Assembly: GCA_028715175.1 (NCBI GenBank)
Contig: JAQUSJ010000001.1
Coordinates: 610,386 to 674,385 of the forward strand
Reading direction: 5' to 3'
Source: Candidatus Daviesbacteria bacterium
GTDB lineage: Bacteria; Patescibacteriota; Microgenomatia; Daviesbacterales; UBA10151
DNA length: 64,000 nt
Shown here: one piece after another, positions 7,432 to 63,133 of the stretch
Position numbering within the stretch: position 1 is the stretch's first letter
Layout of the letters: every line of letters begins with the position of its first letter
Translations under genes and position numbers: made by a program
Notes under the pieces: generated by a model
Database searches by the model: none
What the model was told of the DNA's origin: nothing
Seen by the model: only the letters and a program-made list of their open reading frames with translations

Positions 7432-7472
7432 AATGAAACCGTGTCAACCTAACCCACCCCAGGGGTGGGATG
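7432..7472. repeat. REP-like hairpin (gtgtcaa-cctaa-CCCACCCCAGGGGTGGG-atgaa-ttgacac) upstream of the RAYT-like gene
   Basis: There is a perfect palindromic core, CCACCCCAGGGGTGG, with outer complementary arms gtgtcaa/ttgacac. Confidence 0.7.
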
Positions 7473-7509
7473 AATTGACACCGTACCATTTTTAGGATAA
7501 TCTCAAAAT

Positions 7510-8232
7510 ATGCCCTTTCGCAAAATTCCTGTTGTTGCTGGTGAAATTTATCACGTATTTAATAGAAGCGTAGCCAGACAACCAATCTTTCTTGCTACCA
7601 AAGACTTCAGCAGAGCTATTGAATGTATCAAATTTTATCTACATGGTGATCTGCCTCTGCGTTTTTCTCACTACAATCGTCTTCCTGTAGAACAAAAAGA
7701 CCAAATAACTAAGCAAATACAGAAATGTCCCCAAATAGTAGAAATCCTAAGCTTTTGTTTAATGCCCAACCACGTTCATTTCCTGCTTAAAGGTTTAACA
7801 GAAAAAGGGATAATTCAATTTATGAGTAATTTTCAAAATAGTTACGCAAAATACTTTAACTTAAGAACAGACCGAAGCGGTACTTTATTTCAGGCAATGT
7901 TTAAAGCAGTCAGGATAGAAACAGACGAGCAGCTTGTTCATGTTAACCGGTATATCCACTTAAATCCGGTCACTGCTTATATAGTCAATAATATTGGGGA
8001 CTTAGAGAATTATCCTTGGTCTTCATACCCTGCTTATTGCAAAGCAAAAAGCTTGTCTTATTTAGATTCTTCGTCAAGTTTCATAACTAAAGAACCTGTT
8101 CTAAACCTTTTTAAAGATATACCTGCCTTTAAAAAGTTCACCGCAGACCAAGTCGACTACCAGCGTAAATTAGATGAACCTAACCCACCCCTGGGGTGGG
8201 AAATGCATACACCATCTATTCAAACGGATTAG
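7510..8232 (+). CDS. IS200/IS605-family HUH (Y1) transposase-like protein, REP-associated tyrosine transposase (RAYT)-like
   Basis: An HxH motif (MPNHVHFLL) and a downstream catalytic-Tyr region (NRYIHLNPV) are present. The gene is flanked by inverted REP-like hairpins at 7432-7472 and 8176-8210. Confidence 0.55.
   Translation: MPFRKIPVVAGEIYHVFNRSVARQPIFLATKDFSRAIECIKFYLHGDLPLRFSHYNRLPVEQKDQITKQIQKCPQIVEILSFCLMPNHVHFLLKGLTEKGIIQFMSNFQNSYAKYFNLRTDRSGTLFQAMFKAVRIETDEQLVHVNRYIHLNPVTAYIVNNIGDLENYPWSSYPAYCKAKSLSYLDSSSSFITKEPVLNLFKDIPAFKKFTADQVDYQRKLDEPNPPLGWEMHTPSIQTD
8176..8210. repeat. REP-like hairpin (gaacctaaCCCACCCCTGGGGTGGGa), second copy at the 3' end of the RAYT-like gene
   Basis: It has the same core and flank (aacctaa) as 7432-7472. 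Confidence 0.7.
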
Positions 8233-8918: not shown

Positions 8919-9461
8919 TTATGGCTTAATTTTGAAACCAATTCTGTAAAAACCATCCCGACCCCGGTTGAGGGTTTCAACAGAAACTTGGCTAATTTTA
9001 CTTTCATTTGCTTCTTTGTTCGTCAAATTATTGACTAAGTTATCTAAACTTGCAGAATCGGGTACTGTTGCCAGAATTACCGCCCCGCCAGTCTTATCAA
9101 TGGTAATTGCGTTGATTAAGACGGAAACCGGAATTAATTTATCAATTAATTTATACATCGATGATTGCTGCGAAGATTTTCCAAAATATTGATTAATTCC
9201 ATTAAGCCGGTTTTTCAAAAGGAATAAAGATGCCTGAGTACCTTTCAGATCAGAAACTTTTTGTTCCTCCTGTGCCAACGTTGCTTGAATAACCGCAATA
9301 CTTTGACTCTGCAAAATCCGCAGAGCCAGCGTCAAAGAAGCCAGAAAAACCATTATCAGTACAATAATAATTCCGGCAAATTGAATCTTGTAAAATTTCG
9401 CTTTTTTTAACTCCTGCGCCATAATTTCGGGCGGGAGTAAATTGATTAAAATTCTAGCCAT
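8919..9461 (-). CDS. pilN: Type IV pilus assembly protein PilN-like
   Basis: It has the PilN/fimbrial-assembly N-terminus (LINLLP...) followed by a single TM segment and a periplasmic domain, and follows pilM. Confidence 0.6.
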   Translation of the reverse strand: MARILINLLPPEIMAQELKKAKFYKIQFAGIIIVLIMVFLASLTLALRILQSQSIAVIQATLAQEEQKVSDLKGTQASLFLLKNRLNGINQYFGKSSQQSSMYKLIDKLIPVSVLINAITIDKTGGAVILATVPDSASLDNLVNNLTNKEANESKISQVSVETLNRGRDGFYRIGFKIKP

Positions 9462-9483
9462 ATTTTTAACTAGCCGTCAGCCA

Positions 9484-10524
9484 TCAGTCTTCAGTTCTTA
9501 ATGCCAACCCGACTGCAGCCGAGTACGAAGAGTTGTCTTGTGACAGTTTCAAAACCACATCTTTTTCCTTCACAATTGAATACCATGGATCGGCTTCTTG
9601 TACTTCCAACCCAAAAACGTTCGCAAGGTAAATAACAAGCCCGGGCATTTTAGCACCGCCTCCTGAAACAATTACTCTTTTTATCGGGTTTGAGGGATAT
9701 TTTGTTTCAAAAGCTTGAATAACACGCCGTCCTTCTCCGGCTATAATATCTATTACCGGTTTCAGCGCTTCAAAGACCTTCCCCTCCAGTTGATCTTCCA
9801 TTATTCCATAGATTTTCTTATATTGCTCCGCTTGATTCATTTCAAAATTGAAATGCTGAACCAGCGACCTGGTCAATGCAATGCCTCCGGTTGAAATTGA
9901 ACGGGTAAGCCATATTAAACCCTTAGAAACAGCAGCAAAATCAGTAGTTGTCGCGCCAAGCTGCATAATCAAAGTACTGGGCGAAAAAGGATCATTCCCG
10001 ACCAGTGACCTGGTAACTGCTATTATCTCTGTCTCCAAAACTTTGGCGCGAAGCCCTGCTTTATCCAAAACTTTAATATATTTTAGTACTGCATTTTTAG
10101 GAGAGGCTATTACCAGCACTACCGTCTTAGCATTTCTCCCCTTTGCTTCGGAACGAACCAAAACCTGCCAATTTAAATTGACATCGGATAGAGGCATCGG
10201 AATAAATTCTTCGGCAGCATAATGTATGGCGCTGCTAAGCTCCGCATCTGTGAGATAAGGCAAATCATCGATAACTCTTGTAAAAACTTTTGATTCGGGT
10301 AGTGCCGCAATAACTTCTCTTTGATCAATATTTGCAGCTGTAAAAAGTTTTTTAATAGAATCTGCAAGAACCTCCAGGTCTTCATCAACATCAGAAATAA
10401 TACCGGGTTGGGGAGATGGGGTAGAACCCAAAGAAACAAGTTTGTACCGATCTTGATCTTTTGCCAGCGAAACTACTTTAATAGAAGAAAAGCCTATATC
10501 TAAACCAACATTAATTTTTGCCAT
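9484..10524 (-). CDS. pilM: Type IV pilus assembly ATPase-like protein PilM (actin/FtsA fold)
   Basis: The N-terminus (MAKINVGLDIGFSSIKVV) is a PilM/FtsA-like phosphate-1 motif. The size is 346 aa and it lies upstream of pilN/pilO. Confidence 0.75.
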   Translation of the reverse strand: MAKINVGLDIGFSSIKVVSLAKDQDRYKLVSLGSTPSPQPGIISDVDEDLEVLADSIKKLFTAANIDQREVIAALPESKVFTRVIDDLPYLTDAELSSAIHYAAEEFIPMPLSDVNLNWQVLVRSEAKGRNAKTVVLVIASPKNAVLKYIKVLDKAGLRAKVLETEIIAVTRSLVGNDPFSPSTLIMQLGATTTDFAAVSKGLIWLTRSISTGGIALTRSLVQHFNFEMNQAEQYKKIYGIMEDQLEGKVFEALKPVIDIIAGEGRRVIQAFETKYPSNPIKRVIVSGGGAKMPGLVIYLANVFGLEVQEADPWYSIVKEKDVVLKLSQDNSSYSAAVGLALRTED

Positions 10525-17152: not shown

Positions 17153-18073
17153 TCAAGGGATAAATGTACCTAATTTTAAATACCAATCGATAATCTGATT
17201 TCCCCAAAAAAGAGTTATCAAGCTTCCCAAAACCAAAAATGGGCCAAAGGGAATTGTTTGACCAAAATGTTTTTTACCGGCAATAATAAGCGCTACTCCG
17301 AATATCGCGCCTGTAAAAAATGCCAAAACCAAAGCTATTAGCGCTTGCGGAAACCCCAGCATTATTCCGATAAATGCTCCTAATTTTACATCCCCTCCGC
17401 CCATTCCTTTCCCGCGGGTAATAATTATTAACCCCCAGAAAAATCCGCCAATCAAGAGTCCCATCAATAATGATAAGAGAAACGGCTGGACTACCATTAA
17501 CGCATGTCTTTGGAAGTATCCACTACTCGGAGGAAGAAGTTGTCTACCGATCGGCGTTTGAGCTAAGTAGTAGTACAAGTATCCTACCTTATATGCGGTA
17601 ATAACCAGCAGGGAAATTGTCCCGATCAGAATAGCCGGTTTAATAATTCTATCCGGAATCAGCATTCTTTTAATATCCGTAATAAAAAGAATTGCCAGAA
17701 TTACAATAAAAAAAGTCTTAAAAAGTAAATCAAAAATAAAAATTAAAAATTTGAAATTTGAAATTAGCTGAAGACTGAAGACTGAAGACTGAAGACTACT
17801 GAACTCTTGCCAAAACAAAAACCCAATCAAAACTCCCACAACAGCCTCAACAATCAAATATTCTATACTGATCCGATTCTTACAATATCTGCATTTTCCT
17901 CTAAGCAAAACGTAGGAAAGAATAGGAAAAAGGTCGTACACAGCCAGCGTATGCCGACACCTCAAGCAGTACGACCTTCCCCAAAAAGATTTATTGCTTA
18001 AACTACGATCAGCCAATGCTTTTACCAAGCTTCCCAAGACTATACCAATCAAAAATCCGGCTGATCCCCACAT
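17153..18073 (-). CDS. pilD: Prepilin peptidase (A24 family) PilD
   Basis: It has an N-terminal CxxC...CxxC zinc-binding domain (CLRCRHTL...CRYCKNRIS), a multi-TM body, and GGGDVKLGAFIG (the catalytic Asp region). It contains an in-frame (tcttcag)x4 repeat at 17766-17800. Confidence 0.8.
   Translation of the reverse strand: MWGSAGFLIGIVLGSLVKALADRSLSNKSFWGRSYCLRCRHTLAVYDLFPILSYVLLRGKCRYCKNRISIEYLIVEAVVGVLIGFLFWQEFSSLQSSVFSLQLISNFKFLIFIFDLLFKTFFIVILAILFITDIKRMLIPDRIIKPAILIGTISLLVITAYKVGYLYYYLAQTPIGRQLLPPSSGYFQRHALMVVQPFLLSLLMGLLIGGFFWGLIIITRGKGMGGGDVKLGAFIGIMLGFPQALIALVLAFFTGAIFGVALIIAGKKHFGQTIPFGPFLVLGSLITLFWGNQIIDWYLKLGTFIP
17766..17800. repeat. Tandem heptamer repeat (ctgaaga x4, + strand) in frame within pilD
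   Basis: gctgaagactgaagactgaagactgaagactactga encodes SSLQSSVFSLQL in PilD. Confidence 0.85.
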
Positions 18074-19873: not shown

Positions 19874-19880
19874 AATAATA

Positions 19881-19960
19881 GTCGTCAGTCATCAGTCTTC
19901 AGCTATCAGACTTTCTTGTTTTTGTCTGACGACTGAAAGCTGATCGCTGATAGCTATTTC
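19881..19960. repeat. Palindromic element built of 7-nt NNNTCAG units (gtcgtcag tcatcag tcttcag ctatcag ac-loop-gtctgacgactgaaagctgat...), in the pilC-pilT intergenic region
   Basis: There is an imperfect inverted repeat around a ctttcttgtttttg loop. Related copies occur at 47004-47090, 61679-61755 and 63049-63128 and inside gyrB, murD and gyrA. Confidence 0.8.
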
Positions 19961-24080: not shown

Positions 24081-26191
<2,111 letters not shown>

Positions 26192-26947: not shown

Positions 26948-28282
26948 ATGGCTAAAAGAATACATTTTTTGGGAATAGGGGGGAGTGGGGCATCGGCTGC
27001 TGCTGCTATTGCAGAGGGTCAGGGTTTTGAAGTAACCGGATGCGATCTACAACCCCACAACGAATTTACTACCCAATTCAAAAACTCCCAACTTCTAGTA
27101 GGCCACAACCCCAAACATTTACATTTGAGCGTCCACCCCGGGGGTGTCCATACAAATATCTTGGTTACAAATATCTTGGTTGTTACGCCGGCTATTTTTT
27201 CTTTGGATCCGGAAAATCCGGAACTTTTGGCAGCCAAGAAAAAAGGTATTCCAATCATGACCTGGCAGAAGTTTACAGGAGAGTATCTGACTAAAGGTAA
27301 ATTTGTGATTGCTGTTTGCGGTACCCACGGCAAAACCACCACCACAGCCATGATTGCAAAAATACTGGAGGATAATGGACTTGACCCAACAGTACTCCTG
27401 GGAGCAATAGTGCCTAAGTGGGGGACAAACTATCGCATACCACGACAAAAAGTTCACGATCGTGAATATTTTATCATCGAAGCTGATGAGTTTAATGATA
27501 ATTTTTTACACCTCAAACCTGACATCAATGTTGTTACTAATATCGAGATGGATCACCCGGAATATTTTAAGGATTTTGAAGCAGTTAAGAAAAGCTTTAA
27601 AAAATTCCTGCTCCAAACAAAAACAACTGTTGTAGCAAACTTAACTGATTCCGGTGTTGCGGAAGTAGTAAAAGTTACCATGAAGCAATCCGGTATACAG
27701 TATTTGGATTATTCTAAAAACGAATTAGGCATTACTCTTAAAATTCCCGGAGAATTTAACAAATCAAATGCCCGGGCAGCATTTCAAGTTGGACTCTTGT
27801 TGGGAATTGATCCCCGGATCATCCAGAAAAGTTTATCCGGTTACCCGGGAGTAAGCAGAAGGTTTGAATATATTGGAGAATACCGGGGTAGTAAAGTTTA
27901 CTCTGACTTCGGTCATCACCCCACAGAGATTGCTAAAACCATGGAAGCAGCCCGTCAGAAATTCCCAAAAGAAAGAATTTGGCTGATTTATGAACCGCAT
28001 ATGTTCACCAGAACCAAGGCTTTATTTGATGATTTCGTAAAAGTGTTTAGGCAAATTCCGACAGATAAAATCATCATCACTGATATTTATCCCAGTAGGG
28101 AAGTTGACGAAGGAATTGTTTCCTCAAAACAACTGGCCGAAGCTGTAGGCTATGATAGACTAGTCTATCATAGTAAAAATGAACCACTATCAATTCTCAA
28201 AAGTCAAATCCAAAAAGGAGATATTGTCTTTTTTATGGGAGCAGGGAATATAGATAAACTGGCTAAAGAGTTGGCAGGGTAA
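26948..28282 (+). CDS. murC: UDP-N-acetylmuramate--L-alanine ligase MurC
   Basis: The N-terminus HFLGIGGSGASAAAA, the Mur ligase P-loop GTHGKTTTTAMIA, and the central and C-terminal Mur ligase domains are present. It contains a REP-like in-frame insertion and a 12-mer duplication at 27131-27190. Confidence 0.85.
   Translation: MAKRIHFLGIGGSGASAAAAIAEGQGFEVTGCDLQPHNEFTTQFKNSQLLVGHNPKHLHLSVHPGGVHTNILVTNILVVTPAIFSLDPENPELLAAKKKGIPIMTWQKFTGEYLTKGKFVIAVCGTHGKTTTTAMIAKILEDNGLDPTVLLGAIVPKWGTNYRIPRQKVHDREYFIIEADEFNDNFLHLKPDINVVTNIEMDHPEYFKDFEAVKKSFKKFLLQTKTTVVANLTDSGVAEVVKVTMKQSGIQYLDYSKNELGITLKIPGEFNKSNARAAFQVGLLLGIDPRIIQKSLSGYPGVSRRFEYIGEYRGSKVYSDFGHHPTEIAKTMEAARQKFPKERIWLIYEPHMFTRTKALFDDFVKVFRQIPTDKIIITDIYPSREVDEGIVSSKQLAEAVGYDRLVYHSKNEPLSILKSQIQKGDIVFFMGAGNIDKLAKELAG
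27131..27190. repeat. REP-like palindrome (tCCACCCCGGGGGTGtcca) plus a tandem 12-mer (aatatcttggtt x2) in frame in murC
   Basis: It encodes LSVHPGGVHTNILVTNILVV. The palindrome core is related to the REP at 7432 and 8176. Confidence 0.65.
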
Positions 28283-29712: not shown

Positions 29713-31105
29713 TTTTAAAAAAGTTTTGGTCTTTGGATTAGGGCTTAATGAGGGTGGGGTGGGATCTGCCAGATTTTTTGCAAGACAAGGAGCCAAAGTC
29801 AGGGTAACTGATTTAAAAACTAAAGAAGTTTTAAAACCTTCTTTGCATGAGTTAAGAAATTTTCCGCAAATAGAATATACCTTAGGTAAACACAAAAATA
29901 AGGATATAGATTGGGCGGATTTAATTATCAAAAACCCGGCAATTAAACCAGGAAATCCTTACCTGGAATATGCCACAAAATTGGGTAAACAGATTGACAC
30001 AGACATGGGAATTTTTCTGCAATATGTACGACCTGACCAGATCATTGGAGTAACCGGAACCAAAGGCAAATCCACTACTGCCTCGCTAATTTATGAGGTA
30101 CTCAGCAAATCCTTAGGTGTCAACCTATCCCACCCCAGGGGTGGACAACGCACACACCCCTGGAAAAATGTTATTCTGGCCGGCAATATCGGCAAAAGCG
30201 TTCTGGAAACAATTTCGTTTGTTAAAAACAATACCTTAGTGGTCCTGGAGTTATCTTCATTCCAGCTGGAAGCATATGATACGCACAAAGTTTCTCCAAA
30301 ATGGGCAGTAATCACAAACATCACTCCTGACCATCTTAATTATTACCAAACAATGGCAGAATATATTAAATCTAAAAAAATAATAGGCAAATATCAAAGC
30401 AAAACCGATTATCTTTTTTTGCGGAAAAATGATCCGATTACTACCATACCTGACTTCTTAAAGGAACTAAAGGGAAAAATTATTTATTATTCTAAAAATG
30501 ATTTACCAGAAAACTTTCGTCCTCAACTTTTAGGCAGTCATAATCTGGAAAATATTGCTGCCGCACTGTCTTTAACAAAAACCTTTGGAATTGATAAAAA
30601 ATCTGCTCTCAAAATTCTATCAAAGTTCAAAGGTGTCCCATTTCGGATGGAGTTAATCAAGAAGTGGAATGGAGTGAAAATATACAATGACACTGCTGCC
30701 ACCAGCCCGGAAGCAGGAATCCAGGCTGTAGAAACCTTAGGTGGCAACCTAACTTCACCCCTAGGGTGTCTAATCTTAATTTGCGGGGGAATGAACAAAA
30801 AAATGGATTATACAAAATATACGAGGGTCGTAGCTAAATTTGCCAAAAAGGTTTTCTTTTTGGAAGGGGACTCAACTGATGAAATAAATAAACAGCTGTC
30901 AGCTTTCAGTCGTCAGACGTCAGACAAAATTGCAGGGACCTATGATAATTTAGAAAAACTTCTCGCGGACGTCAAGAAAATTATAAAACCAAAAGATATT
31001 GTTCTGTTTTCGCCTGCCGCCACTTCTTTTAATTTATTTCAAAATGAATTTGACAGGGGTAGAAAATTTAATCAAGCTGTCAAAAAAGTTTTTAAAGATG
31101 CTTAA
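29705..31105 (+). CDS. murD: UDP-N-acetylmuramoylalanine--D-glutamate ligase MurD
   Basis: The N-terminal Rossmann region (VLVFGLGLNEGGVGSARF) and the P-loop GVTGTKGKSTTASLI are present. It contains in-frame REP-like copies (30112-30155, 30748-30782) and a TCAG-heptamer element (30893-30928). Confidence 0.8.
   Translation: MNSFKKVLVFGLGLNEGGVGSARFFARQGAKVRVTDLKTKEVLKPSLHELRNFPQIEYTLGKHKNKDIDWADLIIKNPAIKPGNPYLEYATKLGKQIDTDMGIFLQYVRPDQIIGVTGTKGKSTTASLIYEVLSKSLGVNLSHPRGGQRTHPWKNVILAGNIGKSVLETISFVKNNTLVVLELSSFQLEAYDTHKVSPKWAVITNITPDHLNYYQTMAEYIKSKKIIGKYQSKTDYLFLRKNDPITTIPDFLKELKGKIIYYSKNDLPENFRPQLLGSHNLENIAAALSLTKTFGIDKKSALKILSKFKGVPFRMELIKKWNGVKIYNDTAATSPEAGIQAVETLGGNLTSPLGCLILICGGMNKKMDYTKYTRVVAKFAKKVFFLEGDSTDEINKQLSAFSRQTSDKIAGTYDNLEKLLADVKKIIKPKDIVLFSPAATSFNLFQNEFDRGRKFNQAVKKVFKDA
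30112..30155. repeat. REP-like copy (caacctatCCCACCCCAGGGGTGGacaacgcacacacccctgg) in frame in murD
   Basis: It encodes LSHPRGGQRTHPW. A second degenerate copy, aacctaacttcacccctagggtgtc, lies at 30748-30782 and encodes NLTSPLGCL. Confidence 0.65.
30893..30928. repeat. NNNTCAG-heptamer element (agctgtcag ctttcag tcgtcag acgtcag acaaaa) in frame in murD
   Basis: It encodes QLSAFSRQTSDK near the murD C-terminus. Confidence 0.75.
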
Positions 31106-47003: not shown

Positions 47004-47090
47004 GTCGTCAGTATCGCTTCGCTCTCAGTCTTCAGCTTTCAGACTTGTTTTGTCTGACGACTGATGACTGATAGCTGATAGCTATTCTTG
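47004..47090. repeat. NNNTCAG-heptamer palindromic element filling the yebC-ruvC intergenic region
   Basis: The sequence is gtcgtcagtatcgcttcgctctcagtcttcagctttcagac-ttgtttt-gtctgacgactgatgactgatagctgatagct, an inverted repeat around a ttgtttt loop. Confidence 0.85.
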
Positions 47091-56908: not shown

Positions 56909-57772
56909 ATGGCTGGTGAAACTGTTACCCCATTTCCCGGTCCTTTTGAACATCATCCCAATCCTTTTGAACGTTTAGGCCACAAAGTCGAAACTGTTCT
57001 TCCGTGGCTTGGTAGACATTGGAAATCACTTTCTTTAGCTGCAGCCGCTGCAATAATTCCTGCGGCTGGTGCTGTTTATCTGTTTATTACCCATGACAGA
57101 GGTCCACAAACTTCCCCACAACCCAATAATCCTACCTCAGATACAATCAAAGATCCTAGTACGGAAATAGGCGCAACTATACCGACTCTTGTACCTAGAG
57201 AAGTTCCACCAACAGCTACTGCAACAGCAACTGCTACTTCTACCACTACCCCAGAAGTAAGGAAAGATATTCCTTGTGTCATTCTTCCAATTGAATATTG
57301 TTCTAAAGCAGAACTTGTAGAACGTATCAGTGCAAAAGGAGAATCTAGTAAGGGAGTTGGGGTTAAAGTAGATCCAGGCACTAAAATATTTTCACCTATA
57401 GCTGGTTCAGCCTCAAAAAGAGAATCTGATACTGGTTTTGTGGCTACTATTAATAATCCTAATGATCCTACTGGTCTAGTGCATGGTATACAAGGTGATA
57501 TAGTATTTTACAACCCAAATACAGAAGACAAAGTTGAAAAGGGACAAGAAATAGGATATGTTGGCACAAAACACTATCCCTCCCCTTTAGGTGATTATAA
57601 CCTCCGTATTAGTTCAAATATCATTGAAAATGGTAAGCTAGTTGATAATCCTGGTGCACTACAAAAGCTTTTTCCAGAGGCATTTGAAAATGGCGTTGTA
57701 AGGGTAATTGATCTGCGTAATTCTGATTCTACCTCTGCCAAAACAACATATTTAACTCCTTCGTACCGATAA
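56909..57772 (+). CDS. Membrane-anchored Pro/Thr-rich protein with a C-terminal degenerate LytM/M23-like domain (paralog 1)
   Basis: It has a TM anchor, then a PT-rich linker, then the domain VGVKVDPGTKIFSPIAGSA...GIQGDIVFYNPNTEDKVEKGQEIGYVG (M23-like topology without the HxH motif). Confidence 0.45.
   Translation: MAGETVTPFPGPFEHHPNPFERLGHKVETVLPWLGRHWKSLSLAAAAAIIPAAGAVYLFITHDRGPQTSPQPNNPTSDTIKDPSTEIGATIPTLVPREVPPTATATATATSTTTPEVRKDIPCVILPIEYCSKAELVERISAKGESSKGVGVKVDPGTKIFSPIAGSASKRESDTGFVATINNPNDPTGLVHGIQGDIVFYNPNTEDKVEKGQEIGYVGTKHYPSPLGDYNLRISSNIIENGKLVDNPGALQKLFPEAFENGVVRVIDLRNSDSTSAKTTYLTPSYR
57294..57732. repeat. 439-bp segment apparently 100% identical to 57990..58428 (3' halves of the paralog genes)
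   Basis: Direct comparison of the two stretches shows identity throughout; the divergence points are at 57293/57989 and 57733/58429. Confidence 0.85.
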
Positions 57773-57808: not shown

Positions 57809-58468
57809 ATGGGATCTTTCTGGGAAAAGCCCATTTTCTGGATCATATTTGTACTGCTAGTACTGATTTCTATACCTGTGTTAACTTATTTTTTCAAGCC
57901 ACAAATTTTATCCGGCATAGGTTATATACCCAGTAAGATAAAAAACCTGCAAGCTCCTAAACCGGGAAAGTGTCTAATTCTTGAAGGAAAATATTGTTCT
58001 AAAGCAGAACTTGTAGAACGTATCAGTGCAAAAGGAGAATCTAGTAAGGGAGTTGGGGTTAAAGTAGATCCAGGCACTAAAATATTTTCACCTATAGCTG
58101 GTTCAGCCTCAAAAAGAGAATCTGATACTGGTTTTGTGGCTACTATTAATAATCCTAATGATCCTACTGGTCTAGTGCATGGTATACAAGGTGATATAGT
58201 ATTTTACAACCCAAATACAGAAGACAAAGTTGAAAAGGGACAAGAAATAGGATATGTTGGCACAAAACACTATCCCTCCCCTTTAGGTGATTATAACCTC
58301 CGTATTAGTTCAAATATCATTGAAAATGGTAAGCTAGTTGATAATCCTGGTGCACTACAAAAGCTTTTTCCAGAGGCATTTGAAAATGGCGTTGTAAGGG
58401 TAATTGATCTGCGTAATTCTGATTCTACTGGAAGTGGAATTTTGAATCCTTCCTATAACAAACAATGA
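57809..58468 (+). CDS. Membrane-anchored protein with the same degenerate LytM/M23-like C-terminal domain (paralog 2)
   Basis: It has a different N-terminal TM anchor. The C-terminal ~146 aa are identical to paralog 1. Confidence 0.45.
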   Translation: MGSFWEKPIFWIIFVLLVLISIPVLTYFFKPQILSGIGYIPSKIKNLQAPKPGKCLILEGKYCSKAELVERISAKGESSKGVGVKVDPGTKIFSPIAGSASKRESDTGFVATINNPNDPTGLVHGIQGDIVFYNPNTEDKVEKGQEIGYVGTKHYPSPLGDYNLRISSNIIENGKLVDNPGALQKLFPEAFENGVVRVIDLRNSDSTGSGILNPSYNKQ

Positions 58469-61400
58469 AAAACAAAAGAATTATTTTTCTTAAACTTACA
58501 ATACAGCTTGTTCTACTGTTTATTTTTCTCATTCTGCTTACCCTTGATGTCCCTTTAGTTCAAGCTGATACTAGTTATGTCACACCATTGTATTTACCTG
58601 CCGCAGGTGGTCTCGGATACATACCATGTAATGATGCTAGCGAATGTAATCTGGGCGCTTGTTTTAATAGCCAGGCTGTGGGAGTAACTGATTGTGGACA
58701 ACCTTGTCAAGGTGGAATTACCTGGACAAAATATGACTACTATGGCTGTCAACAAAACTGGATCAATTTTGACACGGGAGAAGAAGAATGTCGACCAATT
58801 TACATTCAAGGCGGTTCTGTCTGTTCTACCGGGGATAAATGCGTCTCAGGAGAAACAGGATTAAGATCTGGAAGCTGTAGTTGTGGCGGTTATAGTTCAA
58901 GCATATACAAGTACTGTTGTACCTCTGCAGGAGCAGCTGAAGCATGCACTACTGCTGGCGCCACTCAAGACAATAATCCTCCACCGGAAGGACGGTGTCC
59001 GGGAGGGTATATTACAGATGAAAATAGAGTAAGAAGTTCTGCTTGTACTGCTTCCCCTACTCCAACCCCTTCCCCTGCACCCATCTGTCAGAATAACTCT
59101 GACTGTGGGACTTGTAGAAGATGCTGTATAAATCCGCCAAGTAACTATTGCTCTACTTTAAACTATGAATGCTCCGGGACTTTAATCCCTGGCTGTGTCA
59201 GCTGTCAGTGCCAGTATAGCCAAACTTGTAACAGCGGGGCAGGAGTCCAGACTTGCAATGGCAGATATAATAGCTCTGGTATTTGTGTCTACTCCTCTCT
59301 CTGTGATCCAAATTGCAGCGAATGCACTTCCTCTTCCAATCCTCCTCCTGCCACCCCTCCTCCTGCTCCTCCCCCTCCTCCTCCCGGATGTTCTTTTTCC
59401 AACTGTGGTGCTTCAGGCTGCCAGCCTGACCAAAGATATGTTTCCGGAACTTGTTCATATGCCTGGTACTTTGGTCCTGCCTGTTACTATGATGCAAGCT
59501 GTGGTGGTGGGGGTGGCGGGGATAATTATGTTGCACCCACCACCGGCCCAAATTGCACTTCCGATGACATCATGTATTTTGATCCTCCAGCCCCTAAACA
59601 AGATCAACCTTTTACGATTAATGTTTTGTCCAAAGGACCCTCGGGAAGGTATCTTTCCATAGCTTTGGATATTACCACCCCTTTAGACCCGGCTGGTGTT
59701 CAGGTAGTCACCTCCCCGTCATACCCGGACATCCCTTCCTTTTATCAGGTCCAGGGTTATCAATACAGCTGGCAATGGCTGATTGGTAAAGCTGAAAGTG
59801 GACCCACTCCCTATCTTTTTGAGTTCAGCATCAATGGCCGCAGCCAATACTGTGTTTCCAATATACTTTATGTTGATCCTCCCAGCATCTCTGCCTGGAT
59901 AAAAGCTTCCGGAGACGTTCACAGCAATGACTGGATAAGAGCTTCCGGTGGACCGGATGCCATTACCTACCAGGGTATAATTTGTCCTGCCCAAAGCCAA
60001 AACCCCAGGGTAACAGGAGGATTAATCACTACTTACGGCTTATCTGATAATTTTGGCAATTCCGAAGCTATCTGTGTGGTGGGCAGTTCTGCTCCTTTTG
60101 CTCCTTTTAAGCTTCTTACTTATGATGATCTAAAATCACTCTACTTTACCCAATCCAAACTTGGTCCGGATCAAAAAATTACTTTGACCGGTAACCAAAC
60201 CCAATCCTCCCTCACAAATCCCATTAACTTATCCTCCCAGGCATTACTACCTCAACCCACTAACTTCCTAGCCAGCTTTAAAAACCTCATCCAAAAACTG
60301 GTTAACCCCATCTCAGAAGTCTTTGCCCAATCAGCGCCTGCCTGTTCCGGGGATATATGTACTGATTGTCTGATCAATAACCAGGGAGATCCAACTGCTT
60401 TTCTTAAGTTTTATGAAGATAATGGCTGGGACATAAGTTGCGGCAGTCAAACAGGCATAATCCAGAATTGGTGTAACGCTACCAGCGAGCAGGCCACAGC
60501 TCAATGCAATTCCATGAAGAGTGGTGTTTGTGCCATAGCATGTGGTAATACCCCCAGTCCAGGCACAAATCAGTTGACCGGTAATCTCTGGGACGGCACT
60601 AATTTTAATACGCCTGATGGCGGCGCCCCATCCGGACCTTCCTTATCAGCTCCGGTTCCTGACACAGCCACAGCCTTAGATCAAAACTGGGGTACCGGTG
60701 CGCCAAACTCCACTGTGGGATCTGATACTTTCTCAGGCAGATGGCAGGGTAACTTTACCTTTAAGGCAGGAACTTACACCTTTTATGCCGGAGCGGATGA
60801 CGGGGTCAGACTGAAAATTGACGGAGTAACCAGGATCAACAGCTGGGTTGATACAGGCTATACTGAGAGAAGCTATACTCAAATATTTTCTTCCCAGGCC
60901 AAACACCTAATCGAGCTTGAATACTATGAAAATGGCGGAGATGCCAGAGTTTCTTTGCGCTGGAGTCATGCAGCGTTTGCCTGTTCCGGGGATACATGCA
61001 CGGATTGTCTGATCAGCAAGCAGGGAGATCCTCCTAATTTCCTCCGGTTTTATCAAAATAATGGCTGGGACATAAGTTGCAGTAACCAGACTGCCATAGT
61101 TGCCAACTGGTGCAACACCACTGATCCTTCAGGCTGTACTGCTTTAAAGTCCGGCAGCTGTGCCACAGCATGTGGTTATGTAGCCCCTACTCCCACACCA
61201 ACCCCTACTCCAACACCTCCTGTACTGGATAAGCTCTATCATATTACCGGAGACTTAACTGTAGAAAGCAACATGACTGTTGGTAAAACAGGAATTATTT
61301 TCATAGATGGCAATTTATCGATTAACACTAATCTGACTCATACAAGTAGTAATGCCGGATTGGTATTGGCGGTAAAAGGAGATGTCACTGTCAATCCTTC

Positions 61401-61677
61401 AGTTACCCGGATTGATGCAGTTATTATCTCTTCCGGGAAAATCTACACTGCAGGTTCCGGCTGCAACCACGGCTCACCTGTGACTGCCAACCAGCTGGTC
61501 ATTAACGGCAGTTTAATATCTTTAGACAGCAACAAAAACATTGAATTTTGCCGGACTCTTGGAAGCAACAACAATACCACCAAGCCGGCCGAACTGATCA
61601 ACAACCAGCCCAAATATCTGGTCATTTTGCGCAATCTCTTTTCCCAAACCTACCAGAAATGGGAAGAAATACCATAA
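58465..61677 (+). CDS. Giant secreted Cys-rich/Pro-rich protein with a PA14 domain, two copies of a ~70-aa Cys-rich module and a C-terminal beta-helix-like region
   Basis: It has a signal/TM N-terminus. PA14 is identified by FSGRWQGNFTFKAGTYTFYAGADDGVRLKIDG...ELEYYENGGDARVSLRW. ACSGD(I/T)CTDCLI..QGDP..FL.FY.(D/N)NGWDISC..Q..I..NWCN occurs twice. There are PPPAPPPPPPG and PTPTPTPTPTP linkers. Confidence 0.6.
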   Translation: MKNKRIIFLKLTIQLVLLFIFLILLTLDVPLVQADTSYVTPLYLPAAGGLGYIPCNDASECNLGACFNSQAVGVTDCGQPCQGGITWTKYDYYGCQQNWINFDTGEEECRPIYIQGGSVCSTGDKCVSGETGLRSGSCSCGGYSSSIYKYCCTSAGAAEACTTAGATQDNNPPPEGRCPGGYITDENRVRSSACTASPTPTPSPAPICQNNSDCGTCRRCCINPPSNYCSTLNYECSGTLIPGCVSCQCQYSQTCNSGAGVQTCNGRYNSSGICVYSSLCDPNCSECTSSSNPPPATPPPAPPPPPPGCSFSNCGASGCQPDQRYVSGTCSYAWYFGPACYYDASCGGGGGGDNYVAPTTGPNCTSDDIMYFDPPAPKQDQPFTINVLSKGPSGRYLSIALDITTPLDPAGVQVVTSPSYPDIPSFYQVQGYQYSWQWLIGKAESGPTPYLFEFSINGRSQYCVSNILYVDPPSISAWIKASGDVHSNDWIRASGGPDAITYQGIICPAQSQNPRVTGGLITTYGLSDNFGNSEAICVVGSSAPFAPFKLLTYDDLKSLYFTQSKLGPDQKITLTGNQTQSSLTNPINLSSQALLPQPTNFLASFKNLIQKLVNPISEVFAQSAPACSGDICTDCLINNQGDPTAFLKFYEDNGWDISCGSQTGIIQNWCNATSEQATAQCNSMKSGVCAIACGNTPSPGTNQLTGNLWDGTNFNTPDGGAPSGPSLSAPVPDTATALDQNWGTGAPNSTVGSDTFSGRWQGNFTFKAGTYTFYAGADDGVRLKIDGVTRINSWVDTGYTERSYTQIFSSQAKHLIELEYYENGGDARVSLRWSHAAFACSGDTCTDCLISKQGDPPNFLRFYQNNGWDISCSNQTAIVANWCNTTDPSGCTALKSGSCATACGYVAPTPTPTPTPTPPVLDKLYHITGDLTVESNMTVGKTGIIFIDGNLSINTNLTHTSSNAGLVLAVKGDVTVNPSVTRIDAVIISSGKIYTAGSGCNHGSPVTANQLVINGSLISLDSNKNIEFCRTLGSNNNTTKPAELINNQPKYLVILRNLFSQTYQKWEEIP

Positions 61678-61678
61678 T

Positions 61679-61755
61679 AGCTGTCAGTCTTCAGCTATCA
61701 GCTTTCAAACCAGTAACAAAAAGTCTGACGACTGACGACTGAAAGCTGATAACTA
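61679..61755. repeat. NNNTCAG-heptamer palindromic element between convergent genes (PA14 protein / dksA-like)
   Basis: The sequence is gctgtcagtcttcagctatcagctttcaaaccagtaacaaaaagtctgacgactgacgactgaaagctgataact. Confidence 0.8.
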
Positions 61756-62115
61756 TTTCCCGAAATTTTTCTTTGAACAGGCTACACAGTACTGAGCTGT
61801 AGGCATGGCTAAAAGCCTGCCAATCTCAATCTGTTTACCGCAATTCTCACATTTTCCATAAGTGCCGTTCTTAATCTTTTGCAGAGCTACCTTTATACTG
61901 GTTTTAGCATCTGTCAACTTTTTTCCCAACACTATACTTTTACCGTGAGTTTCAGCAATATAAGAATCCGTACCTGGTTCCGAGGATTCTACCAGAGCAG
62001 GTGATTTTGCCGGATCGTCTTCGGTAACAAGCTTTAAATTTTTCTCTACCTCTTTTTGCTGCCTTAAGAGGTGTTTTTGGATAAACTCAAGGGTTTTTTT
62101 AGGAAAATTTGACAT
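61753..62115 (-). CDS. DksA/TraR-family C4-type zinc-finger protein
   Basis: A C-terminal CxxC...CxxC (CENCGKQIEIGRLLAMPTAQYCVAC) follows a coiled-coil N-terminus. Confidence 0.6.
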   Translation of the reverse strand: MSNFPKKTLEFIQKHLLRQQKEVEKNLKLVTEDDPAKSPALVESSEPGTDSYIAETHGKSIVLGKKLTDAKTSIKVALQKIKNGTYGKCENCGKQIEIGRLLAMPTAQYCVACSKKNFGK

Positions 62116-63048: not shown

Positions 63049-63128
63049 GATAGCTTTCAGCCATCAGTCTTCAGCTTTCAGATTTTTTTGAGTTATCTAA
63101 CGACTGATAGCTGACATCTGACGACTAT
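63049..63128. repeat. NNNTCAG-heptamer palindromic element in the divergent lgt / 63134 intergenic region
   Basis: The sequence is gatagctttcagccatcagtcttcagctttcagatttttttgagttatctaacgactgatagctgacatctgacgact. Confidence 0.75.
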
Positions 63129-63133
63129 TACAA

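Follow-up and report, generated by a model that had tools for sequence, protein, structure and literature searches.

Candidatus Daviesbacteria probably carries a REPtron-like unit, in which a domesticated, single-copy gene of the RAYT type and two cognate hairpins occupy a fixed chromosomal site, and solo copies of the hairpin lie inside genes. The unit was analysed in a 64-kb stretch of DNA, called the window in the following, and lies between trmD on one side and pilO-pilN-pilM on the other. Most descriptions of RAYT/REP systems come from Proteobacteria, and the repeats are described as almost exclusively extragenic; the present case would extend them to the Candidate Phyla Radiation (CPR), with a large share of hairpins surviving within essential cell-wall and DNA-repair genes in a single reading frame. 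RAYT/REP systems, intragenic REPs, and coding palindromes as such are already known. New here are the CPR lineage, the tagless hairpin, the non-canonical protein, the low copy number, the high intragenic share, and the single frame. The features of the window are collected in the table.

Table. Features of the putative unit and of the hairpin-related sites in the window (CM, covariance model)
Feature	Coordinates	Strand	Remarks
Upstream REP-like hairpin	7437..7485	+	aACCGTGTCAACCTAA-CCCACCCC-A-GGGGTGGG-ATGAATTGACACCGTA; CM 69.3 bits, E=4.5e-17
RAYT-like Y1 HUH transposase gene	7510..8232	+	240 aa; HUH at H88/H90, catalytic Tyr at Y148
Downstream REP-like hairpin	8175..8213	+	left outer arm lost, inside the 3' end of the ORF; encodes PNPPLGWEMHTP
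Inner palindrome only, hypervariable loop of murC	27133..27147	+	CCACCCCGGGGGTGT; encodes VHPGGV; CM 12.9 bits, E=0.29
Full-length REP copy in murD, in frame	30113..30161	+	encodes (S)LGVNLSHPRGGQRTHPW; CM 61.4 bits
Probable REP copy in murD, old and diverged, with a partial deletion	30736..30768	+	CTTAGGTGGCAACCTAACTTCACCCCTAGGGTG; encodes LGGNLTSPLGC

The preliminary description of this DNA had reported an open reading frame (ORF) of 240 aa with an HUH motif and a downstream Tyr motif, and all of this was recovered. The motifs read NHVHFLL and RYIHLNP, and H88, H90 and Y148 are invariant across an alignment of 52 homologs. The Pfam family Y1_Tnp (PF01797) matched the ORF with 36.9 bits (E=4.5e-9), above its gathering cutoff of 23, but the top NCBIfam match, REP_Tyr_transpos (NF047646, E=3.7e-14), reached 52.9 bits and stayed below the RAYT equivalog cutoff of 80 bits. 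An AlphaFold2 (AF2) model of the protein was built from the 52 homologs (pLDDT 86). When this model was used for a fold search, 4er8_A ranked first (E=4e-7), followed by the TnpA proteins of IS608 and ISDra2. The entry 4ER8 is E. coli TnpA-REP (RayT/YafM) bound to a REP hairpin. A sequence search of the PDB with the single protein as query returned no relevant match, and profile searches of the PDB were weak, with ISDra2 TnpA on top (E ~0.01) and 4er8 at E ~0.2; among the PDB comparisons, the fold search alone was informative. Taken together, profile and modelled fold support the assignment of the ORF to the IS200-family HUH/Y1 proteins of the RAYT type.

The RAYT signature published in PMC2817692 comprises an N-terminal Thr that is conserved and, downstream of the Tyr, NP(L/V)(R/K)xG. 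Compared by eye, the ORF lacks the N-terminal Thr, as the strand reads YHVFNRS, and has NPVTAY after Y148-IHL; NPV is kept, with T in place of R/K and Y in place of G. The signature is therefore only partly kept, and the protein is not a canonical RAYT: on the predicted fold and the sequence context it is RAYT-like, yet no canonical member. The RAYT organisation proposed in the preliminary description holds to the same extent, for the best structural match is 4er8 and hairpins flank the gene, but the signature motifs are incomplete and the score is under the NCBIfam cutoff. The database contains 1638 homologs of the protein, one of which is named Candidatus Daviesbacteria. The typical homolog is 222 aa long and ends in ...DYQRKLDEIKHLxLE.

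The chromosomal position of the gene is conserved. Syntenic orthologs were found in at least four other assemblies, with amino-acid identities to the window ORF of 91% (L002), 82% (L065), 80% (L003) and 75% (L006). In all four, the gene stands before pilO, and before pilO-pilN-pilM where the contig extends far enough; in L003 and L006, it is preceded by trmD. One copy of the gene is present in the window. The dN/dS ratio lies between 0.05 and 0.18 in all pairs (0.107 for window versus L002), with dS up to saturation, and the identity gradient of the homologs is similar to that of host genes. The comparison of sequences thus indicates a fixed, vertically inherited gene under purifying selection, and no jumping insertion sequence (IS). 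The properties by which Bertels/Rainey recognise a RAYT, namely a single-copy gene at the same position within a lineage, vertical inheritance, and purifying selection, were all found. Those of an autonomous IS200/IS605 element would be several copies at unrelated sites with a patchy distribution; one copy at a conserved locus was found instead.

As for the hairpin, the core given in the preliminary description, CCACCCCWGGGGTGG, indeed occurs four times in the window at up to two mismatches, versus 0.02 occurrences expected from shuffles; the GC content of the window is 40%. The true element, however, is longer, about 48 nt, and has two stems. Its consensus is tACGGTGTCAACCTAW-CCCACCCC-N-GGGGTGGG-...ACACCGTa or, written arm by arm, tAC GGTGTCAACCTAW CCCACCCC N GGGGTGGG ATACGCAC ACACCGT a. 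The outer stem is formed by ACGGTGT and ACACCGT, and the inner G+C stem extends to 11 bp in part of the copies. With 23 copies as input, a covariance model was made and used for an unfiltered scan of the window. Three significant matches were obtained, at 7437-7485 (69.3 bits), at 30113-30161 (61.4 bits) and, partial and covering model positions 8-42, at 8175-8209 (38.7 bits); all three score better on the plus than on the minus strand.

Folded as single-stranded DNA (ssDNA), the upstream copy reaches -12.5 kcal/mol and beats every shuffle (z=-3.2). The DNA surrounding the full-length murD copy (30113-30161) likewise beats every shuffle (z=-3.2), and its minimum-energy fold consists of two small hairpins other than the element's own stems. 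The ssDNA folds of the downstream copy, the murC site (z=-0.3) and the second murD site (z=-0.8) are no better than those of shuffles. Within the 23-copy alignment, 73% of the cells are paired, versus 26-40% with the partner slid, and of the two controls this one alone speaks for the pairing. Base-pair covariation in this alignment does not go beyond the shuffle control (56/500), and therefore compensatory evolution is not claimed as proof of the hairpin structure. Rfam holds no family for the hairpin and gave no gathering-level matches in the window; a scan of related loci returned a single sub-threshold miRNA match, by chance. The GTAG/CGTC tag next to the stem is absent from the consensus, the nearest sequence being WTAG on the complementary strand.

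In all four syntenic loci (L002, L003, L006, L065), the gene has this hairpin at either end, one copy some 25 nt ahead of the ATG and the other directly behind the stop codon. The downstream hairpin occupies a convergent intergenic gap of 50-65 nt. Within a locus, the flanking copies share their variants. Both hairpins read CACACC-T-GGTGTG in L003, both carry CACACC with an A-G mismatch in L002 and in L065, and both carry CACCCC in the window and in L006. Such homogenisation within genomes includes the solo copies. It is the product that would be expected of spread from a master copy or of homogenisation between copies, and it is no proof of selection for pairing. Homologs at 46% identity from other CPR lineages (L042, L068, L029) are flanked by the same hairpin family as well. 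Clearly inverted flanks, in which the canonical arm is turned towards the gene, are seen in L042 and L068, and L068 has a tandem, BIME-like array downstream of the gene. The window had been described as carrying two inverted hairpins that bracket the ORF. A hairpin is present at each end, but the second is inside the 3' end of the ORF, and the inverted orientation was not confirmed, since both window copies score higher on the plus strand and would be direct, the upstream copy being nearly symmetric.

The upstream hairpin, about 25 nt from the ATG, includes TTGACA in the arm nearer to the gene, and TAATCT follows 17 nt later. L042 and L068 share with the window this arrangement of TTGACA and, at a distance of 17-18 nt, a TAnnnT hexamer. 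A consensus promoter scan found no promoter-like sites; the upstream hairpin as the promoter of the gene was set aside, the conserved TTGACA-N17/18-TAnnnT being the only sign of it. A paralog with 40% identity (L011, L022) was also considered as the driver of the hairpin family. The search for GC-rich hairpins found a different, simpler one at its flanks, CAACCT-GAA-AGGTTG, which corresponds to the element's outer part, and the paralog was therefore rejected as the driver of the ~48-nt family.

The position of the downstream hairpin inside the ORF is explained by DNA comparison. At this point, L002, L003 and L006 read ...GATGAA ATTAAACATCTTGTACTTGAGTAA CTGGAC GGTGTCAACCTA...; set against the window's GATGAA-CCTAA..., the orthologous loci have GATGAA-ATTAAACATCTTGTACTTGAGTAA-CTGGAC-GGTGTCAA-CCTA.... 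Through a 38-nt deletion, the window has lost the final seven codons together with the stop codon, the spacer, and the hairpin's outer arm on the left. Translation of the ORF therefore continues into the hairpin as PNPPLGWEMHTPSIQTD, with a 17-nt overlap with pilO, and in the protein alignment the conserved last seven residues, IKHLxLE, are replaced by 17 hairpin-encoded residues. Judged by these alignments, the deletion joined the hairpin to the ORF, and therefore the hairpin was never inserted into the gene. Because the lost C-terminal residues include nearly invariant positions, the window's own transposase copy may be impaired; the remainder of the gene is still constrained according to dN/dS.

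Outside this locus, the clearest copy in the window is the full-length one in murD. It corresponds to a 16-aa insertion between the helix after the P-loop and the strand leading to GNIG, with a 16-residue gap in the PDB MurD structures 8dp2 and 3lk7. The insertion is present in three orthologs (P0122, P0123, P0133) and missing from close ones (P0124, P0132, P0142, P0150 and others); many MurD orthologs of 65-73% identity do not have it. In the AF2 model of MurD, residues 137-154 are coil with a pLDDT of about 52, the lowest in the model. Alignment and model support an in-frame insertion of the full-length hairpin into murD, at a loop predicted with low confidence. The preliminary description had placed an in-frame REP here, at 30112-30155, and had argued that REPs are tolerated inside essential peptidoglycan genes; both points are borne out by this copy.

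Copies were then counted with frame-agnostic patterns in one genome per species and in a metagenome collection, which gave 15 loci in species-representative genomes and 49 in metagenomes. The window has three copies, and related metagenome-assembled genomes (MAGs) have about 7-8 each with the exact pattern; GCA_964551605.1 has six exact matches on four contigs, plus variants. Solo hairpins without the gene occur on several contigs of related MAGs. A large share of the hairpin copies is intragenic. Besides MurD, intact Daviesbacteria-type copies were found inside a DinB-type polymerase, UvrC, MurT, UvrB, and a PEP-utilising enzyme (identified with Pfam), the UvrC copy at the same site in two lineages. 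Hairpins upstream of the likely start codon, in SecA (L032) and L048, were left out of the in-gene set. All six independent in-gene copies have one orientation and one frame, which encodes GVNL(S/T)H(P/T)(R/W)GG. Because about 3.5 of the six frames are open, according to a reading of the consensus, a single frame in all six is unlikely to be due to chance (about 0.002). A copy in a PMT_2 glycosyltransferase from a different lineage (L041) is read on the opposite strand. The features by which coding, RPE-like palindromes are recognised, that is, in-frame insertion relative to orthologs, loop position, and constant frame, are all present.

TnpA-REP and IS608 TnpA suggest, by analogy, how the unit may work. 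The hairpin, folded on ssDNA, would be bound by the protein and the DNA beside it cut, with Tyr148 covalently joined to the DNA in the intermediate; the strand would then be rejoined at another place, and this would slowly seed solo hairpins around the genome. Many copies would survive inside genes because these genomes of about 1 Mb leave hardly any room between genes. Where genes are so dense, selection may spare only loop-compatible copies with an open frame, and the survivors would be 48-nt (16-aa) insertions of a Gly/Pro-rich peptide into surface loops of housekeeping enzymes, the murD copy among them. Older, decayed remnants would remain at the second site in murD and at the one in murC. 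Owing to the 38-nt deletion, the ORF in this genome runs through its 3' hairpin. Several observations count against the REPtron-like reading: the copy number is far below that of classical REPs, the protein falls short of the RAYT cutoff and signature, no presence/absence polymorphism of copies was found between very close strains, covariation is at shuffle level, and the window gene is without the nearly invariant C-terminal motif.

Two other explanations of the locus have to be weighed. The gene and its hairpins could be an ordinary autonomous IS of the IS200/IS605 type, in which the two hairpins mark the left and the right end and all ~780 bp transpose as a unit. The match to Y1_Tnp, the rank of ISDra2 TnpA as the top PDB sequence-profile match, and the location of both hairpins on the same strand by CM, like the LE/RE hairpins of IS200/IS608, would fit. 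Nevertheless, this is very improbable, as the same chromosomal neighbours recur in at least four other assemblies with saturated synonymous sites, the window has one copy, the protein has 222 aa in place of about 140, dispersed hairpins occur alone with no gene beside them, and the top structural match is TnpA-REP and no IS transposase. It is also unlikely, if less remote, that the hairpins are host regulatory or structural elements, such as a bidirectional terminator or an operator/promoter, and that the Y1 protein is a domesticated, non-mobilising DNA-binding factor. The dispersed copies would then be old fossils or would spread by another route such as template switching or gene conversion. 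The downstream hairpin in the convergent gap between the gene and pilO, the spaced TTGACA and TAnnnT hexamers in three loci, and the low copy number agree with a regulatory role, as does the report that RAYTs of groups 1, 4 and 5 are single-copy and without REPINs (bioRxiv 10.1101/2021.07.10.451892). Yet intact full-length copies in six different genes cannot serve as terminators or operators, the promoter scan was empty, the sole terminator-like site is elsewhere, and the hairpin variants are homogenised within genomes, solo copies too.

A separate question is whether the two weaker sites are derived from the REP-like hairpin. The preliminary description had listed a second murD copy with the same core at 30748-30782; its core differs, the CM scan gave 8.3 bits for 30737-30762 (E=5.5, below significance), and the coordinates are rather ~30736-30768. 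Here, CACCCCTAGGGTG stands behind a stretch that agrees with CTTAGGTGTCAACCTA in 15 of 16 positions, and the left arm is followed by a hairpin of 5 bp. The site adds 8 aa relative to orthologs reading KTFPGCILICGG, is common to P0121-P0124, P0126 and P0129, and is coil in the AF2 model, with a pLDDT below 50 at residues 350-353. Of the murC copy described at 27131-27150, the inner palindrome of 13-15 nt was found, but its CM score is not significant. Compared with PDB MurC, the murC loop has 10-14 additional aa, five of them from a 15-nt tandem duplication, and [SVFTN]HP[RGKWE]G appears in 23 of 120 MurC orthologs at three different sites. Alignment of the MurC and MurD orthologs thus bears out the 16-aa insertion at the first murD site, but at the other two sites it yields longer loops without proving a REP origin. 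The similarity could stem from chance or convergent GC-rich palindromes or from a loop motif selected in the protein, which is possible but doubtful. The E-values at both sites and the folds at shuffle level point that way, as does the hypervariability of the two loops, which in other lineages contain unrelated insertions. On the other side, the 13-nt palindrome CACCCCNGGGGTG occurs in this window of 40% GC only at the four listed sites, the second murD site agrees with the left arm at 15 of 16 nt, among them the flank CTTAGGTG that the first murD copy also has, and clearer versions stand at the same sites in orthologs (GVKLVHPEGG in P0161 for murD; SHPRGV in P0247 and P0294 for the murC loop). 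It is plausible that both sites are best read as old, degenerate REP remnants, for which the peptides [SV]HPxG[GV] and GVKLVHPEGG, recurring in orthologs at these loops, are indirect support, and the murC site may be a REP relic.

A further idea, put forward tentatively and rather unlikely to hold in full, is that the hairpin is a coding-adapted REP which colonises ORFs as a harmless Gly/Pro loop in CPR genomes with hardly any intergenic DNA, and that a RAYT-type protein drives loop variation in Patescibacteria. The right arm of the master copy reads ATACGCACACACC, where a perfect palindrome would give TTAGGTTGACACC. This departure removes a TGA in the GVNLSHP frame, and therefore the element could be translated. 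Other in-frame repeat families are present at the same MurC and MurD loops; taken with these, and if true, short mobile hairpins would be a general source of protein-loop variation in Patescibacteria.

REP families typically have more than 100 copies, which are mostly extragenic. Unlike such REPs with their hundreds of copies, the Daviesbacteria hairpin has tens at most, many of them intragenic. The REPtron-like unit resembles the REPtron of E. coli RayT/TnpA-REP (YafM; PDB 4ER8) in the Y1 HUH fold, the single-copy chromosomal gene, and the vertical inheritance, and it resembles the E. coli REP/BIME system in that its own hairpins flank the gene and solo hairpins are dispersed. In contrast to the E. 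coli system, the hairpin lacks a GTAG tag on its 5' side, and the protein, at 222 aa, has an extra C-terminal helical region. With the TnpA proteins of IS200, IS608 and ISDra2, it would share, by homology, the HUH/Tyr chemistry and the recognition of subterminal hairpins known for them; those proteins have ~130-150 aa and their whole units are mobile in multiple copies, whereas the Daviesbacteria gene is syntenic and single-copy.

REPINs are almost exclusively extragenic and linked only to RAYT groups 2 and 3 (bioRxiv 10.1101/2021.07.10.451892). REPs inside genes, many of them replication or repair genes (uvrA, uvrB, recB), were reported by Di Nocera et al. 2013, as were TIRYTs/TIRtrons, with longer RAYT-like proteins, inverted repeats without GTAG, and moderately abundant families (PMC3733652). 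The Daviesbacteria hairpins likewise have repair genes as hosts (uvrB, uvrC, dinB), but differ from the intragenic GTAG/CGTC REPs and TIRtrons in the CPR lineage, the hairpin sequence, and the one frame of the Daviesbacteria-type copies. The RPEs of Ogata et al. (2000, 2002), as a review summarises them, are in-frame palindromes in Rickettsia housekeeping genes that encode a fold-compatible conserved peptide (PMC10969869). The palindromes described here are similarly in frame, in housekeeping genes of a reduced genome, and encode a conserved peptide; RPEs measure about 100-150 bp, whereas the Daviesbacteria element has 48 nt and a linked, conserved Y1 transposase gene. To our knowledge, RPEs have no known cognate transposase.

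Literature searches returned no RAYT/REP system described in CPR bacteria. The pair of a 222-aa enzyme and its 48-nt putative substrate is a concrete handle on how REP-like elements spread. It could help to explain the tolerance of selfish DNA in tiny genomes packed with genes, and the many short loop insertions by which orthologous proteins differ in these lineages. GC skew tracks gene orientation, and no replication direction can be read from it.

In the window, a second repeat family is commoner than the REP-like hairpin that flanks the RAYT-like transposase ORF. It consists of palindromes of about 80 nt, and their arms are built from TCAGnnn/CTGAnnn units with a period of 7 nt. Four full palindromes and four further copies were found, two of the latter in frame inside genes (see table). 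Ortholog comparison at the murD site showed that the insert is present in some MurD orthologs and absent in others.

The same surface loops of MurC and MurD hold differing short inserts across Daviesbacteria lineages and are hot spots, which suggests that there are several in-frame repeat families. An SHIGSG insert was found in 14 of 120 MurC and 8 of 120 MurD orthologs, and an SSLRAxRSNLKIxGPY insert occurs in 19/120 MurD orthologs. MurD orthologs range in length from 428 to 655 aa, the longest forms carrying an extra His_Phos_1 domain. In the window's murC, a 15-nt unit, ACAAATATCTTGGTT, is perfectly duplicated in tandem directly 3' of the GC palindrome. TNILV is thereby encoded twice (the protein reads ...HTNILVTNILVV...), and the duplication was found in none of the 119 other aligned MurC homologs.

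The transposase ORF itself contains an insertion of 8 aa, AYCKAKSL, common only to the window protein and its two closest homologs (P0001 and P0002). Its coding stretch includes a small AAGC/GCTT palindrome, and the inserted residues are of low confidence in the structure model.

Coordinates of repeats, insertions and transposase paralogs
Feature	Position	Remark
Full ~80-nt palindrome	19878-19958	
Full ~80-nt palindrome	47011-47086	
Full ~80-nt palindrome	61677-61757	
Full ~80-nt palindrome	63050-63129	
TCAGnnn/CTGAnnn copy	9456-9507	
TCAGnnn/CTGAnnn copy	17762-17800	
TCAGnnn/CTGAnnn copy	25806-25873	in gyrB, in frame
TCAGnnn/CTGAnnn copy	30878-30932	in murD, in frame; encodes ...LSAFSRQTSDKIAG...
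Tandem duplication	27160-27189	in murC
AYCKAKSL insertion	8032-8055	in transposase ORF
Direct repeat, 300 nt	57275-57574 / 57971-58270	97% identity
Direct repeat, 151 nt	60332-60482 / 60971-61121	77% identity
CCCCT-type repeats	59054-59381	rich in proline codons
Y1 transposase paralog	L011:1403-2020	related MAG
Y1 transposase paralog	L022:2250-2867	related MAG

Related Daviesbacteria MAGs encode a second Y1 transposase paralog with 40% identity, which was not found within the window. A simpler hairpin, CAACCT-GAA-AGGTTG, lies on both its flanks, the upstream one ending 8 nt from the ATG. Seven MAG loci (L009, L010, L012, L018, L019, L022 and L023, from CAZDEH01 and CAZKCV01) are titled 'uncultured Gammaproteobacteria'. 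These titles look like mislabels, since the proteins and gene order agree with the Daviesbacteria window.

Copies of the REP-like hairpin from wider CPR metagenomes are extended on the left by a conserved flank, TCCYKA|GGTGTCAACCTAA, giving a full palindrome of about 57 nt (loci L026, L035, L006:5623-5671, L032, L049, L054, L060, L073 and L068). In many copies the right arm gives way to a tandemly repeated unit made up of GGGGTGTG and some 5 nt more; alternatively, the entire hairpin unit is tandemly arrayed (L068). Several copies are located directly upstream of genes, e.g., secA.

The window's large direct repeats and CCCCT-type repeats are probably parts of repetitive genes for surface proteins.
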